A program made the translations under genes and the position numbers. Under the pieces are notes generated by a model. That model was not told where the DNA came from. It was given only the letters and a program-made list of their open reading frames with translations, and did not search any database. Below are positions 2,682 through 27,260 of a stretch of DNA of 64,000 nucleotides, piece by piece. Position 1 is the stretch's first letter, and the number at the start of each line of letters is the position of its first letter. Source of the DNA: Thermodesulfobacteriota bacterium (GTDB lineage Bacteria > Desulfobacterota > Desulfobaccia > Desulfobaccales > 0-14-0-80-60-11); NCBI GenBank assembly GCA_049322355.1, contig JBMORG010000010.1:435186-499185 (forward strand). Reading direction: 5' to 3'.

Positions 2682-4103
2682 TCAGGGGGAGGGAGGAAAG
2701 AGCCGGTTATAGCGCGCTTCATCTTCGTCTCGGAGGTCAACAGCTAAATTGGCCCAGCGGCCCTGGGTCGTCAGCTCTGTGGTGACTTGGGCCAATATGC
2801 CGTGGCTGTTGGCAGCCTCGAGCAGGGAAAAGATCATTTCCTCGTCATCGCCGTAAGTGGTTTCGTCAAGGATTCTAACGATTTGATCGGTAATCAGCCT
2901 GGCATCGCTGGGCAATACCTGCCCTGGAAGACCCCAAACCCATACTCCCTCAATGCCATAGCCCCGCACCAGACCTGTTGCAGCCGCGACATTGACCTGC
3001 CACAGGTCCGACAATCTCTGGATAAATCTTGTTCCAACGGCACCCCGTCCCACGTTACAGCCCATAAGTACAACGGTGGCCCCGTCACAAAAGTAAGGGA
3101 TGAGCTCGTTTAACGACGGCCGGAAGTTACCGGTGGAAATGTTTCTCTCCGCAATCCAGCCCGTGCCGTCGCCGACCGACATATTTCCCGGTGACCCGTG
3201 ACCGTCAAGAGTTAACCGGTTTATGCAATTATCGGCTGGATCACCTACCTCTGATTTTACTTCACGCACCATTTGATCCACACTTTCGGCCTCGATTTCA
3301 CCGATGTGGAAGGTAACTTCGCGCCAGTTCGCCACATCCCGGTTTACCCCAAAATCAAGTACATAGACATTCTTTCTCCTGCGATTATCGGGGGAGGGAC
3401 GGCCGGTGGCCGGGGCGGCCGCGCCTGGAGCCCGAGGTGTGGCGCCGGCCGGAGCTACCGGCGCGCCAGGCTCTTCTACGCGCTGGATACTTTCTGCCAT
3501 ACTGCCATGGCTCTGCTGGAGGACGTGGGCTAACTCATGGGCCAGCAAGCGTTGTCCCGTGGTGGTCTGCGGCGCATATTCACCGGCTCCGAAAAAGATA
3601 TCATGGCCGAAAGTAAGGGCGTGGGCCTGAATTTCCTGGGCGAGTTCGTCAGACCGGGGATCCGTGTGGAGGCGAACCGAGCCAAAGTCCGCACGAAATC
3701 GCGGCTCGAAAAATGCCCGGCTGGTCTCGGGCAAAGGCTGTCCTTGTCCCTGTAGATTCCTCAGTCTGGATTCCAGATGGTGGCTTAACTCAAATTCACC
3801 ATCAGAGTGAGATTTTGTCTTTAGCAACTGCTCATCTTCTGCCCCAATCCTTTCTATTTCTTCCGCTGACCGCTGGAGATTCGTATCCGGCAGACGCAGG
3901 ATTTCACCCGCCACCCGGTCAGCTTCCTGCTCGTAAATATCGCCGGGGGCGCTTACAGCGAGATCGGCCTGAGGCTGATGTGGCCGCAGGATCTGGCGCA
4001 CTGCGGTCTGCTGAGGAGTTCGGAACGAGGGAAAAACAGGCTGGCTTTTGGGCTTAGCGCGAGTTAGTCCAGTTTGAGTTAGTTTGGGCGCAAAAGTTTT
4101 CAT
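2682..4103 (-). CDS. eCIS cargo candidate: DUF4157 (HExxH metallopeptidase-like) N-domain + DUF4347-like C-domain
   Basis: The ORF track gives 2682..4253. I prefer Met51 (ATG at 4103) because MKTFAPK matches the N-termini of the neighbouring cargo ORFs and avoids overlap with 4187..4651; no clear SD precedes it. Motifs GDIYEQEADRVA and HELAHVLQQ. The C-terminal LDGHGSPG...VVLMGCNVGRG pattern resembles DUF4347. Confidence 0.75.
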   Translation of the reverse strand: MKTFAPKLTQTGLTRAKPKSQPVFPSFRTPQQTAVRQILRPHQPQADLAVSAPGDIYEQEADRVAGEILRLPDTNLQRSAEEIERIGAEDEQLLKTKSHSDGEFELSHHLESRLRNLQGQGQPLPETSRAFFEPRFRADFGSVRLHTDPRSDELAQEIQAHALTFGHDIFFGAGEYAPQTTTGQRLLAHELAHVLQQSHGSMAESIQRVEEPGAPVAPAGATPRAPGAAAPATGRPSPDNRRRKNVYVLDFGVNRDVANWREVTFHIGEIEAESVDQMVREVKSEVGDPADNCINRLTLDGHGSPGNMSVGDGTGWIAERNISTGNFRPSLNELIPYFCDGATVVLMGCNVGRGAVGTRFIQRLSDLWQVNVAAATGLVRGYGIEGVWVWGLPGQVLPSDARLITDQIVRILDETTYGDDEEMIFSLLEAANSHGILAQVTTELTTQGRWANLAVDLRDEDEARYNRLFPPSP

Positions 4104-4186
4104 GGCTGTTTTCAATTTTAAACTCTTATTATGGGGCTTATCAGCAGAGTTTTTCCGGCCCCCTTTCTTCCGGCTCAGGGCCGGGA

Positions 4187-4651
4187 TTACTGATCGGCTG
4201 GACTCTCCTTTTGGTGCATAATCCAAATATGCGGGGGGGTGGAATCCACCCATGGACTGCTCATCGTACCGACATAAACGTCAAGCTCATGAGACTCAGG
4301 AGTGGGCGGAATGTGCAAAACGCCTCGCACCCGCAGGGGCCTATCTAGTAAGGCAAGGGCGGCAGGGAGGCCATCCCAATTTTGCTGGGTAACCGGGACA
4401 TTAAATGTATGTTCGGCGCCCGCCGCCACTTCCACGAACCGAGGGATATTGCGGGTAAAGCGTTGTGGCCCCGGCGTGAGGCGCGCCGAAGTGCGGTCCT
4501 GGCCTGTGGACTCCAGCTCCAGCGCCAGCATTGTCCATCCCCAAGAGTTGGACCGGTCCCAGAGGCGCAACACTCCGGGACCGGCGTTGTGGACGACGAA
4601 ACGTACGCCATTATCAGTTAGATGCAACGTCAGTTGTGGCGCCTTAGCCAT
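4187..4651 (-). CDS. Hypothetical protein between the two DUF4157 genes (candidate immunity/adaptor protein)
   Basis: 154-aa ORF co-oriented in the cargo module. No motif recognised. Confidence 0.55.
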   Translation of the reverse strand: MAKAPQLTLHLTDNGVRFVVHNAGPGVLRLWDRSNSWGWTMLALELESTGQDRTSARLTPGPQRFTRNIPRFVEVAAGAEHTFNVPVTQQNWDGLPAALALLDRPLRVRGVLHIPPTPESHELDVYVGTMSSPWVDSTPPHIWIMHQKESPADQ

Positions 4652-4687
4652 GTTACACAGCCTTACCGGTACAAGGCCCGGCTCTCT

Positions 4688-25012: not shown

Positions 25013-26938
25013 TTATTGCTGGGCCACCTTCTGCTGAATGCGAACAATGACAAATTCCGCGGGCTTCAACGGAGCAAAGCCCACTATGACGATTACCATG
25101 CCCCGGTCGATGTCGTCCTGGGTCATGGTGTCGCCCTTTCCGCACCGCACAAAGTAGGCTTCCGAGGCCGTCTTGCCTTGAAAGGCGCCAGCCCGGAAAA
25201 GCCCGTCCATGAAGGCCCCGATATTGGTGCGCAGGGAAGCCCACAAGTTGTAATCATTAGGCTCGAAGACCGCCCATTGAATGCCGTTGTAGATGCTCTG
25301 TTCGATCATGATGGCAGTGCGGCGCACCGGCACATAGCGCCACTCCGGTTCGGCCTTGGTAGCCAGGGTCCGGGTCCCCCAGATGACCGGGCCATAGCCG
25401 GGCATACGGCGCAGACAGTTGATGCCCAGGGGATTGAGCTGATCCTGTTCGCCATCTTCAATCTGGTATTGCAGGCTGGTCACTCCCAGGAGAGAGGTTT
25501 CCACCCCGGCGGGAGCTTTCCAAACCCCGCGTTTGGCGTCGATCTTGGCCCACATGCCGGCTGCCGCGGCGCCGGGGGCCACCAGCAAGGTGGTGGGGAC
25601 GCCGGGATTGAACTCGGCTTGGTAAAAAGGGTTGGCCACTTTGATCCAGGGATAGTACACCACCGAGTAAGTCTTGGGTTTAAAGCCCAGATCGGTCACC
25701 GCCTTCTCGGTTTTCAATTCGGTGTTTGCTGGCGGGTCGATAATAACCATGCGGCTTTTCATCTTTTCCGCATGGGCCACGGCGGCATCTATGATGGCCT
25801 GCTCCGCAGTGGAAGACCAGGTCTGCCCCGGCAGGCAGATGATATTAACATCCCGGTATTTTTCCAAAATGGCGAAAATCGCCTGGTAGGCGGCTAGGTT
25901 GGGCTGGTTGCCATTACCCCCACCAGTCAGGGGAACCAAACCATCTACTGTGGCCAGCAACTCGTTCAGCGACTGCTGGCCGGTACGCTCCAAGCCGTCG
26001 TGAGCCACGCCCAGCAGCAAGTGCGCCGCAGCATCATCGGCGCCGCCAGGGCCGGTTACCACCACGGCGGAAGTGGGAAGCCGGGACCCGGAGGTCAGTT
26101 CCAGGCGCTGGTTGACCACGGCACAGGTAAAGCCGTGAACTGCCGGATTTTCTGCAGCCGTGACCGCCCCCCGGACCTGGGTCTGAATGAGACTGGCCAC
26201 GTCGGCCAACTCGCTGTCGTTGTCAAAGGCATCCGCAGCAAAAGAGACGCTCCGGGCGGCGCCATCCACCGTGACGGTCATGGAGTCGCCGTTCAGGACC
26301 GTAAGGTCAGCCAGTCCCCCCAGATTCTGACTGATGCTGACCCCCAGCAGATACTGGCTCAGGTCTTGAACCTCCACCACAATATACTTGGAGATGCCGT
26401 TGACCTTGCTCTCGATGTAGTCCGGAGCTTGGTCGTCAGCGACCGTCAGATCGGTGAACTTCTCCAGGGATTGAAACTTTCCTTCTCCATCCGGGACGCC
26501 CACCTCCAGAACGAAATAATTAGGGAAATCTGGTTTGGGATTGAACCGCACCCTGAGGGCGTTTCCCCACTCCCCTGGATTGACCGCCAGAAATTTAATT
26601 ATCTGGGCGGCGTTCCCCGGATTCACCACAAAGCCTTCCGCTGTGTCTGCGGTGCCCTCGGCAATGGCGCGGACAATATAAGCCGCGGTGCCGCCATTGA
26701 GGAAGAAGTTGTAGGCCGCAAATCCCATGGGATCCCCGGCTTCGTCCTTGCCGAGGTCCTGGATTCCGCCAAACTGATCGTCATAGGCATCCCATTTAAA
26801 AATCAGGGTCGGCTCCGCCACGGGGCCCTTGGTGGTATAGCCGATAAAAGCGGCTGTAGATGTCCCCACCCCTTCAATAGGTTTGACCCCGCTGGGAATT
26901 TCCTCAACATAAACACCCGGATGCAGATAACTGGGCAT
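25013..26938 (-). CDS. Contractile tail sheath protein
   Basis: 641 aa. N-terminus MPSYLHPGVYVEEIPSGVKPIEGVGTSTAAFIG is typical of sheath proteins. AGGAGAAGG precedes the ATG. First gene of the operon. Confidence 0.9.
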   Translation of the reverse strand: MPSYLHPGVYVEEIPSGVKPIEGVGTSTAAFIGYTTKGPVAEPTLIFKWDAYDDQFGGIQDLGKDEAGDPMGFAAYNFFLNGGTAAYIVRAIAEGTADTAEGFVVNPGNAAQIIKFLAVNPGEWGNALRVRFNPKPDFPNYFVLEVGVPDGEGKFQSLEKFTDLTVADDQAPDYIESKVNGISKYIVVEVQDLSQYLLGVSISQNLGGLADLTVLNGDSMTVTVDGAARSVSFAADAFDNDSELADVASLIQTQVRGAVTAAENPAVHGFTCAVVNQRLELTSGSRLPTSAVVVTGPGGADDAAAHLLLGVAHDGLERTGQQSLNELLATVDGLVPLTGGGNGNQPNLAAYQAIFAILEKYRDVNIICLPGQTWSSTAEQAIIDAAVAHAEKMKSRMVIIDPPANTELKTEKAVTDLGFKPKTYSVVYYPWIKVANPFYQAEFNPGVPTTLLVAPGAAAAGMWAKIDAKRGVWKAPAGVETSLLGVTSLQYQIEDGEQDQLNPLGINCLRRMPGYGPVIWGTRTLATKAEPEWRYVPVRRTAIMIEQSIYNGIQWAVFEPNDYNLWASLRTNIGAFMDGLFRAGAFQGKTASEAYFVRCGKGDTMTQDDIDRGMVIVIVGFAPLKPAEFVIVRIQQKVAQQ

Positions 26939-27231
26939 AACCTTCTCCTTACCTAAGTAAAGTTTGATTCCAGGTTAATACCAATGCTTTGAACAACTTG
27001 GATCAAAGCCCGCAAGTCCTCACCGCTTATCAAAAAAGTTACAGTTGATTATAGATAGTTATCTTTAAGGACCCCCCAAGGCCTCGTTCGCTGTGTTTAA
27101 TACCCCAGATTGATTACCTTATTTTCAGGCCCTGCCTTTTTGAAATACTTAAAAATTTATCGCCTCACCGCGGCAGATTCATTGACACCCCTTGCAGTCC
27201 CTTTTTTGAAAGTAATTTATTAAATGGTAAA

Positions 27232-27260
27232 ATAATAGGGACATCATTTTATAAAGTCAA
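27232..27260 (-). promoter_or_regulatory. Candidate sigma70-type promoter of the eCIS operon
   Basis: On the minus strand: TTGACT (27260-27255), a 17-nt spacer, then TATTAT (27237-27232). It lies inside a visibly AT-rich ~330-nt stretch and would give a ~285-nt leader before the sheath ATG. Confidence 0.35.

Follow-up and report, generated by a model that had tools for sequence, protein, structure and literature searches.

The window analysed here, 64,000 nucleotides of contig JBMORG010000010.1 from an uncultured, anaerobic Thermodesulfobacteriota bacterium, contains a cluster of 20 minus-strand open reading frames (ORFs), running from 26938 to 2682, whose products support its reading as a complete, intact and chromosomal contractile injection system (CIS) of the superfamily known as extracellular contractile injection systems (eCIS). 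We consider it probable, on balance, that this is an intact lineage II eCIS with a Tail_P2_I/DUF6519 baseplate that acts extracellularly. Within lineage II the published description of subtype IIb is the best match, as judged by published traits. The locus is a further member of a catalogued, widespread lineage without a studied member, and no new kind of system.

The 20 ORFs lie where a sequence-only reading of this DNA had placed them, and its description of them as co-oriented and tightly packed is confirmed by their coordinates and spacings: with the most plausible starts, adjacent genes either overlap by 1–7 nt or are 0–163 nt apart. Examples of overlap are the stop codon of the tube gene and the next ATG at 24340, the cap and ATPase genes, the ATPase gene and a 77-aa ORF, and the pair encoding 391-aa and 1117-aa proteins. 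Domains were called with Pfam at its curated gathering cut-offs, with NCBIfam in addition, and by sequence and fold searches of the PDB. The same reading had assigned the cluster to the eCIS superfamily, and we concur, as its products comprise sheath, tube, spike, gp25, J-like baseplate, DUF4255, AAA+ ATPase and DUF4157 proteins. Most of its domain assignments, including the sheath, tube, gp25, DUF4255 and AAA matches on which it had staked its case, score above the Pfam gathering cut-offs; the exceptions are LysM/gpX, which is weak, and gpJ, for which there is no match to Pfam Baseplate_J. The 16 structural genes are full-length in comparison with their homologues and stand in the order of the related loci described below. 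From the sheath gene to the fibre gene they are:

25013..26938, minus strand: tail sheath, 641 aa, the only sheath gene and the equivalent of Afp2-4/Cis2
24340..24849, minus strand: inner tube protein, 169 aa, gp19/Afp1 type (PF06841)
23516..24340, minus strand: lineage-specific accessory (CxxC) protein, 274 aa, with two invariant CxxC pairs
22120..23379, minus strand: P/E-rich ORF, 419 aa, TTG start, listed by position
21085..22116, minus strand: tube/sheath terminator cap, 343 aa, Afp16/Pvc16 type, Pvc16_N (DUF4255)
19751..21088, minus strand: AAA+ ATPase, 445 aa, single-domain, Afp15/Pvc15 equivalent (Pfam AAA and WHD)
19524..19757, minus strand: conserved 77-aa ORF, its position kept in relatives
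18882..19520, minus strand: tube-fold protein, 212 aa (CIS_tube, PF19266)
18508..18798, minus strand: LysM/gpX-like protein, 96 aa, Phage_tail_X below cut-off
17362..18507, minus strand: spike hub, 381 aa, gp27/P2 gpD-like, N-terminal half of a split VgrG/Afp8
16549..17361, minus strand: spike, 270 aa, gp5/P2 gpV-like, with OB fold, β-helix and C-terminal HxH tip motif
16145..16522, minus strand: gp25-like sheath initiator/baseplate wedge, 125 aa (GPW_gp25)
14962..16137, minus strand: short baseplate-J-like protein, 391 aa, Afp11/gp6-like paralogue (TIGR02243)
11612..14965, minus strand: large baseplate-J-like protein, 1117 aa, paralogue at the Afp12/gp7 position (TIGR02243)
10081..11592, minus strand: Tail_P2_I-type baseplate protein, 503 aa (Tail_P2_I, E=3e-6 in Pfam)
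7023..9989, minus strand: DUF6519 (eBAP5) tail fibre/receptor-binding protein, 988 aa

Comparison with 25 related loci, 22 of them from a scan of one genome per species (sheaths 62–78% identical) and three found via Tail_P2_I homologues, provides further insight into this arrangement. In 24 of the 25 the gene order is kept as far as the DNA reaches, the remaining locus (L017) being a sheath gene alone. The shared order begins with sheath, tube, CxxC protein, a variable P/E-type ORF, cap, AAA+ ATPase and 77-aa ORF, and continues with the tube-fold, LysM, gp27-like, gp5-like, gp25, 391-aa J-like and large J-like proteins. About 18 of the 25 loci are collinear over the first 13–14 structural genes, as far as the gene for the 391-aa J-like protein or the beginning of that for the 1117-aa protein, while the loci designated L023, L024 and L025 cover the cap or ATPase gene through the Tail_P2_I and DUF6519 fibre genes; no one related locus spans all 16 core genes. 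This conservation of gene order is far beyond chance. The architecture had been called unusual, which it is not: its features are published traits of lineage II and of the Tail_P2_I-eBAP5 type, and the identical gene order occurs in dozens of public genomes.

The hosts of the related loci include Desulfobacca, Geobacter and metagenome-assembled genomes (MAGs) of Geobacteraceae, Syntrophus gentianae, S. buswellii, Desulfatiglandales, Desulfopila, Desulfosarcina, one Verrucomicrobiales MAG, and Gammaproteobacteria including Psychromonas. The flanks are conserved on neither side across these loci, and the genes upstream of the sheath gene vary from locus to locus (LonC-like, sigma-54 activator, HipA, AbiEi, SpoIIE). 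In the related loci examined the cluster is kept as a unit without phage genes, and it behaves as a self-contained, horizontally mobile module. From the literature, eCIS loci have been noted in the sulfate-reducing partners of methanotrophic archaea, and Geobacter is statistically enriched for eCIS (10 of 24 genomes).

The sheath exceeds the cut-offs of both PF04984 (59.8 bits) and PF17482 (48.8 bits). Its top PDB matches are the sheaths of the Streptomyces CIS (8BKY, E=1e-86; 8BL4, 7e-84) and of Halogeometricum (9EZM, 3e-83), whereas the Afp and PVC sheaths in the PDB reach only 1e-37 to 1e-46. The tube protein matches PF06841 (E=6e-39, 133.3 bits against a cut-off of 28.2) and NCBIfam TIGR02241, with weaker matches to the CIS1 and CIS5 families, and its PDB matches are tCIS All3324 and the AlgoCIS tube proteins. 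The cap (Pvc16_N, E=1e-26, 94.2 bits against a cut-off of 27) and the ATPase (PF00004, 90.7 bits, E=1e-25, with GPSGTGKT as Walker A) are similarly clear. The 212-aa tube-fold protein is just over the cut-off for PF19266 (29.1 bits against 27) and is 49–92% identical in related loci, and we regard it as a candidate tube initiator or adaptor of the Afp5/Afp7 kind. The 96-aa LysM-like ORF beside it is also kept in position and length in related loci, and the LysM/tube-initiator function of an Afp7-type protein appears to be split over these two ORFs.

Three further ORFs among the structural genes are less readily assigned. The CxxC protein has invariant cysteine pairs at C95/C98 and C209/C212 in the alignment with its relatives and a weak Pfam match to T4_baseplate only; there is no PDB sequence match, and a PDB search with the family profile gave nothing meaningful. 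Its family is large, with 791 clusters at 50% identity found at E<=1e-10 among 1.84 billion representatives, and its slot, with the tube gene on one side and that of the putative tape measure on the other, makes it a candidate assembly chaperone. The P/E-rich ORF (12% Pro, 10% Glu) has no family match in Pfam or NCBIfam. In related loci the slot holds an ORF of variable length with 34–55% identity where similarity is detected at all, sometimes confined to ~50 residues beside the cap gene; by position alone, its product is a candidate tape-measure-like or tube-lumen protein. The 77-aa ORF likewise has no family match in Pfam or NCBIfam, although a 77-aa gene is called at the equivalent position in L023–L025 and tblastn finds 30–68% identity with relatives. 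In tblastn the similarity of this small ORF to related loci often continues upstream, past its ATG, over ~90 nt shared with the end of the ATPase gene (window 19751–19841, minus strand), which could reflect either a longer overlapping gene or conservation of the ATPase C-terminus in another frame.

The sequence-only reading had proposed a split spike, and the split is real, as each of the two ORFs aligns to one half of the VgrG-like CIS spikes that have been solved. The 381-aa hub, whose N-terminal part is matched by NCBIfam VgrG_rel, aligns to residues ~20–340 of fused spikes (AlgoCIS 7AEF_q, tCIS All3320 and Salmonella CIS VgrG), and the 270-aa spike (Phage_base_V, E=9e-23, 80.9 bits) aligns to residues ~371–560 of the fused VgrG-like spikes. 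A C-terminal motif of the latter, GGEPxIKGxSFxxLFxxHxH, is conserved in 19 sequences, in which the positions G.GGEP, IKG, SF, LF and H.H are invariant. In P2 gpV and phi92 gp138 the spike has an HxH motif at its apex, by which a metal ion is coordinated and the tip sharpened. The lack of a PAAR gene, also remarked on before, holds for the operon: none of its 20 products matches PAAR in Pfam, and the largest unassigned gap is 163 nt, which leaves no room for such a gene within it. By analogy with the phage spikes we infer that the split spike is self-tipped, its conserved HxH C-terminus sharpening the tip so that a PAAR cap would not be needed.

Of the baseplate proteins, the 125-aa gp25-like protein is well above the cut-off for PF04965 (47.9 bits against 27.2, E=1e-12). 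The next two match the NCBIfam family TIGR02243 ('putative baseplate assembly protein') below its cut-off of 155.8 bits, the 391-aa protein with E=4e-25 (88.5 bits) and the 1117-aa protein with E=1e-40 (139.7 bits) over residues 619–933, and neither matches Pfam Baseplate_J at E<=1. Both also find Streptomyces Cis11 (9GTP), the family profile of the 391-aa protein in a weak but collinear match (E=0.037) and the 1117-aa protein in the PDB search with E=4e-4. Although the curated thresholds are not reached, we consider the J-like homology of the two proteins, as judged from sequence, to be convincing, and because both match TIGR02243 and Cis11 they would be two J-like paralogues, as are Afp11 and Afp12 or gp6 and gp7. 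The 1117-aa protein ends in a C-terminal extension of ~170 residues (window 11612–12120, minus strand) with a weak match to DUF4332/helix-hairpin-helix. The extension is also present in L023 and is absent from the 945–946-aa homologues of L024 and L025 (Syntrophus, Geobacter); in the G. sulfurreducens locus a separate HHH_5 gene follows the Tail_P2_I gene.

The 503-aa Tail_P2_I protein gives an AlphaFold2 (AF2) model of moderate confidence (predicted local distance difference test score, pLDDT, 72), with a helical N-terminal domain followed by a β-helix-like core, and the only probable PDB fold match of the N-terminal domain is a phage Mu baseplate chain (probability 0.99, E=0.11). The 988-aa fibre matches DUF6519 (E=1.5e-10) and is the least conserved of the core genes, with 46–66% identity among related loci. 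DUF6519 is eBAP5, a baseplate-anchor domain of eCIS fibres, and the second major type of eCIS baseplate carries eBAP3/5 fibres on Tail_P2_I adaptors, with an example in Desulfococcus (Nat Commun 2026, PMC12923769). The 503-aa/988-aa gene pair fits this Tail_P2_I + eBAP5 type, and the 503-aa protein is accordingly named here as a predicted fibre adaptor, a role taken from that work (PMC12923769). Between the DUF6519 anchor and the C-terminal region of the fibre, at residues ~435–560, are four tandem repeats of ~33 residues, each flanked by two cysteines (C-x..-[AL][LI]Dx[LI]C), which may form a disulfide-stapled shaft module.

To the 3' side of the fibre gene the loci diverge. In the window this region holds four ORFs:

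6316..6990, minus strand: 224-aa ORF whose cargo-type N-terminal leader is degenerate and which has one hydrophobic segment
4688..6289, minus strand: cargo candidate 1, 533 aa, with leader, DUF4157/eCIS_core (HELAH), PG_binding_1-like region and β-sandwich
4187..4651, minus strand: 154-aa ORF, listed for its position between the two DUF4157 genes
2682..4103, minus strand: cargo candidate 2, 473 aa, with leader, DUF4157/eCIS_core (HELAH) and a DUF4347 C-terminal region

At the same place L023, the closest relative, has one DUF4157 + PG_binding_1 protein, in Syntrophus gentianae an 880-aa protein is accompanied by two DUF4157 proteins, and one Geobacter locus has two small ORFs. Both DUF4157 proteins of the window carry HELAH and match eCIS_core at ~105 bits against a cut-off of 22 (E=2e-30 for each); cargo 1 has in addition a weak match to PG_binding_1, and cargo 2 a match to DUF4347 (E=3e-10). 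DUF4157 is an eCIS core domain and marker, found N-terminal to toxin domains at the 3' ends of operons (Geller 2021, PMC8213781). The start of cargo 2 is most likely at 4103 (MKTFAP..., Met51 of the longest ORF) and not at 4253, because the longer form would overlap the 154-aa ORF by 67 nt and the shorter one aligns with the other cargo leaders.

A leader of ~75 residues, MxTFA...RQILR...Q.KL.V...D..E.EADRVAE..RMP, is common to the DUF4157 proteins, and it is also present on the 880-aa protein, which lacks a Pfam DUF4157 match, and in degenerate form on the 224-aa ORF. Conservation among the cargo proteins is limited to the first ~225–250 residues, leader included, and their C-terminal domains differ. 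At the level of sequence, variable C-termini behind a common leader are the pattern of polymorphic effectors that would share a loading module, in line with the account of DUF4157 given by Geller 2021. In cargo 1, residues 270–533 are modelled by AF2 with a pLDDT of 94.3 as a four-helix PG_binding-like domain and a β-sandwich, and these C-terminal 264 residues recur in 64 database proteins, where most of the matches long enough to keep the N-terminal region carry DUF4157. The PG-binding-like domain points weakly to bacterial targets or cell walls. Neither the 224-aa nor the 154-aa ORF has a family match in Pfam or NCBIfam or a homologue in L023–L025; the hydrophobic segment of the former (residues 107–125) is possibly transmembrane, and, speculatively, the latter could encode an immunity or accessory protein.

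Taking the characterised Afp, PVC, AlgoCIS and Streptomyces systems as a guide to each step, we propose that the gp27-like hub and gp5-like spike would form a trimeric tip, and that the gp25-like, the two J-like and the Tail_P2_I proteins would make up the wedges, with the DUF6519 fibres held by Tail_P2_I. The tube would then polymerise from the tube-fold/LysM initiator, possibly around the P/E-rich protein as a length ruler, and the sheath would polymerise round the tube until the DUF4255 cap ends both. The AAA+ ATPase would aid assembly and load the leader-bearing DUF4157 effectors. Particles would be released, presumably by lysis of a subpopulation, the fibre would bind to a target surface, and the sheath would contract, with spike, tube and cargo being driven into the target. 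It is mainly the fibre that suggests release from the producer.

Extracellular action is favoured because the long, fast-evolving fibre and its adaptor are conserved in the window and likewise in each of the three related loci extending this far, and because the sole candidate membrane protein, the 224-aa ORF product, is not conserved. In the literature fibre-less eCIS loci are regarded as likely intracellular (PMC12923769). However, none of the systems to which the three closest solved sheaths belong is extracellular (cytoplasmic in Streptomyces, membrane-bound in Halogeometricum), and the label 'extracellular' is therefore not to be assumed. A possible though unlikely alternative is that the system, while of the same superfamily, fires inside its producer, either free in the cytoplasm to bring about regulated cell death, as does Streptomyces CIS-Sc, or anchored to the cytoplasmic membrane and dependent on contact in the manner of a type VI secretion system (T6SS), as in Halogeometricum and Amoebophilus (T6SSiv). 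The sheath matches to 8BKY, 8BL4 and 9EZM at E~1e-84, compared with 1e-37 to 1e-46 for Afp/PVC, are consistent with this, and the 224-aa ORF beside the fibre gene could provide a membrane anchor through its hydrophobic segment, while the PG-binding-like effector could be directed at the producer's own wall. Set against these are the 988-aa DUF6519 fibre and Tail_P2_I adaptor, kept in the window and in 3/3 loci reaching the fibre, since the Streptomyces type is without fibres (Afp13 is missing in most IId loci) and fibres are a marker of extracellular action in the literature (PMC12923769); nor is the 224-aa ORF conserved in related loci. Other points also weigh against an intact, extracellular lineage II system. 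No lysis cassette (holin, endolysin) is recognised in the window, which the intracellular alternative would accommodate, and the C-terminal model of cargo 1 finds nothing above a template modelling (TM) score of 0.27 among PDB folds and no recognisable toxin fold. The J-like scores lie below curated cut-offs, the 96-aa LysM/gpX protein is weak at 17.1 bits against the Phage_tail_X cut-off of 22, the candidate tape-measure and chaperone roles are drawn from gene position alone, and the candidate promoter described below, which with 10/12 consensus matches is the top minus-strand site in 24200–27700, is a consensus match alone. Finally, as the sequence-only reading had stated for hosts of this kind, there is no characterised member: we found no experimental characterisation of Thermodesulfobacteriota systems or of this lineage in the literature. 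Because of this, and because both closest solved relatives are not extracellular, the cluster might instead, though we think this quite improbable, serve a mode or role undescribed for contractile injection systems; that peptidoglycan-directed DUF4157 effectors are passed between partners in anaerobic syntrophic or sulfate-reducing consortia would be one example, and a third kind of anchoring another. The lineage does have features of its own that allow for such a mode, being PAAR-less, with a Tail_P2_I/DUF6519 baseplate, a putatively self-tipped spike, and its own CxxC, P/E-rich and 77-aa genes.

The extracellular eCIS reading has also to be weighed against other contractile machines. An R-type tailocin or the tail module of a decayed myovirus prophage, which would kill by membrane depolarisation with no protein cargo, shares the P2-like parts (gpV, gpD, gpX, gpI, gp25 and J-like) and the single sheath and single tube gene, and yet is very improbable here: R-tailocins lack the eCIS-specific markers seen here, namely the DUF4255 cap, the AAA+ ATPase and the two DUF4157 proteins; genes for lysis, a regulator, integrase, capsid, portal or terminase are missing; and the cluster is kept as a phage-gene-free unit in the related loci examined. 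Its flanks are housekeeping, with trkA/trkH on one side and, on the other, a lipoprotein-like ORF, a P-type ATPase, α-glucan phosphorylase, ribF, nusA, infB (IF-2) and pnp (PNPase). All genes examined outside the cluster in the 64-kb window are housekeeping or unrelated, and the window has no capsid, portal, terminase or integrase genes and no T6SS membrane-complex genes. As the flanking genes are housekeeping, neither of the signs that would have spoken for a prophage or a T6SS is seen within the 64 kb, in keeping with the earlier conclusion that the cluster is neither. A canonical T6SS, notwithstanding the common ancestry of sheath, tube, spike and gp25, is effectively refuted by gene content: the sheath is one long phage-type protein and not TssB/TssC, none of the 20 products is a TssJ/L/M, TssK, TssF/G or ClpV-type protein, and the DUF4255 cap and fibre are foreign to T6SS.

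Upstream of the sheath gene lies the one regulatory feature that we list:

27232..27260, minus strand: candidate sigma-70-type promoter, TTGACT, 17 nt spacer, TATTAT

This site is in an AT-rich stretch ~290 nt upstream of the sheath ATG. A comparison across related loci for a regulatory element or regulator upstream of the sheath found only the ribosome-binding site conserved, and Rfam and tRNA scans found no RNA element associated with the cluster. There is no GC jump at the cluster borders, and an NCBI MAG named Thermodesulfobacteriota bacterium encodes proteins with 100% identity to the sheath and to the Tail_P2_I protein.

Several observations concern the neighbourhood. At the operon's 3' end a TrkA_N-like ORF (window 2237–2712, plus strand; Pfam E=2e-15) has a frame change near 2480–2500 and stops at the operon end. 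It has the look of a trkA paralogue with a frameshift or truncation, and it is divergent from the intact pair trkH-trkA at 26–2073. Insertion of the cluster into a trkA-like gene is unsupported, because there is no matching C-terminal remainder at the cluster's other end. At that end an 883-aa ORF (window 27535–30186, plus strand) is divergent from the operon, with a probable start at MSKEQ... followed by a lipobox-like LLVCG; it is assigned to no family of Pfam or NCBIfam, P/R/G-rich sequence of low complexity makes up its last ~250 residues and finishes in GGGGG/R runs, and it was not found beside the cluster in related loci. Genes for tRNA-Leu(CAG) (35354–35440, minus strand) and tRNA-Gly(CCC) (36841–36916, plus strand) lie ~8–10 kb from the cluster, not adjacent to it, with no integrase near them, and a skipping-rope small RNA (RF02924; 40.1 bits against a gathering cut-off of 36.7) is found at 55814–55906 (plus strand), downstream of the ORF at 54011–55750.

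In the published census of contractile injection system loci, lineage II makes up the major clade; only two of its subtypes have been studied, and both of these overturned the assumption of extracellular action. The locus described here represents a third type, very widespread, in clean and intact form, and since the cultured anaerobes Syntrophus buswellii DM-2, S. gentianae DSM 8423, Desulfosarcina ovata and D. cetonica carry this cluster as well, the lineage is within experimental reach. The common N-terminal leader on otherwise unrelated cargo is a concrete, testable candidate for a loading signal, and the putatively self-tipped split spike a testable alternative to PAAR capping. What we add to the published picture is the exact parts list, evidence for a J-like nature of both large baseplate genes, the putatively self-tipped split spike, the cargo leader and the cultured carriers.

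The eCIS are divided into lineages I and II (Chen 2019, PMC6899500). The lineage I systems Afp, PVC, AlgoCIS and Anabaena tCIS have the same core parts, with cargo encoded at the 3' end, and the tube and both spike halves of the window align to AlgoCIS and tCIS proteins. They differ in their fused VgrG-like spike, Afp10/PAAR gene and Afp14 tape measure; two to three sheath paralogues occur in Afp and PVC, whereas one sheath chain each is seen in AlgoCIS and tCIS. In Afp/PVC the cap and ATPase are at the operon end, by the afp1–afp18 numbering, rather than mid-operon as in the window, and lineage I fibres anchor on Afp12 while those of the window are predicted to do so on Tail_P2_I.

The CIS of Streptomyces coelicolor and S. 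venezuelae (IId; 8BKY, 8BL4, 9GTP) belongs to lineage II, has a single sheath gene and the closest solved sheath, and of the solved baseplate proteins only its Cis11 matches the 391-aa and 1117-aa proteins. However, its spike is one fused ORF, IId has a PAAR gene, and the Afp12/13 (fibre) genes are missing from most IId loci; the system is cytoplasmic, functions in cell death and requires the membrane protein CisA. The CIS of Halogeometricum borinquense (IIa; 9EZM), also of lineage II, has a sheath nearly as similar and a split-spike-type organisation (Chen 2019), but it is archaeal, plasmid-borne and membrane-anchored in a T6SS-like, contact-dependent manner with a dedicated anchor, Hbor_38620, and IIa has a PAAR gene. 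The G. sulfurreducens locus GSU0972–GSU0992 is a deltaproteobacterial one of lineage II type, likewise uncharacterised, in which afp8 is split and the J-like genes number two, with one gene for Tail_P2_I. Its ATPase and cap genes are upstream of the sheath, it has two tube genes and a PAAR gene (GSU0985), and no DUF6519 fibre or DUF4157 protein is annotated. We considered GSU0972–0992 as an orthologue and rejected it on the gene table of Geller 2021 (PAAR, two tubes, ATPase/cap upstream). The G. sulfurreducens eCIS locus is up-regulated in Δgsu1771 biofilm (PMC10599522).

Among the subtypes of lineage II, Afp8 is split into gp27 and gp5 ORFs in IIa–IIc, Afp10/PAAR is missing only from IIb, Afp14 is generally undetectable throughout the lineage, and each subtype carries extra conserved genes without known domains (Chen 2019, PMC6899500). 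The cluster resembles IIb, as defined in dbeCIS, in its single sheath, split Afp8, lack of Afp10/PAAR and of a detectable Afp14, and apparently divergent Afp12/13 equivalents, as well as in its domain-less subtype-specific extras, which here are the CxxC protein, the P/E-rich protein and the 77-aa ORF. One afp11 is described for IIb as against two J-like paralogues in the window, and the larger of these may be the 'divergent afp12' of dbeCIS. The Tail_P2_I + eBAP5 type is known from prediction, without a particle structure, and eBAP5 has been reported mainly in Actinobacteriota, whereas the window and its relatives are from Thermodesulfobacteriota and others (PMC12923769). The likeness to this type is nevertheless direct, as the DUF6519 fibre gene lies directly downstream of the Tail_P2_I gene, and the published examples include a Desulfobacterota genome, that of Desulfococcus multivorans (PMC12923769).

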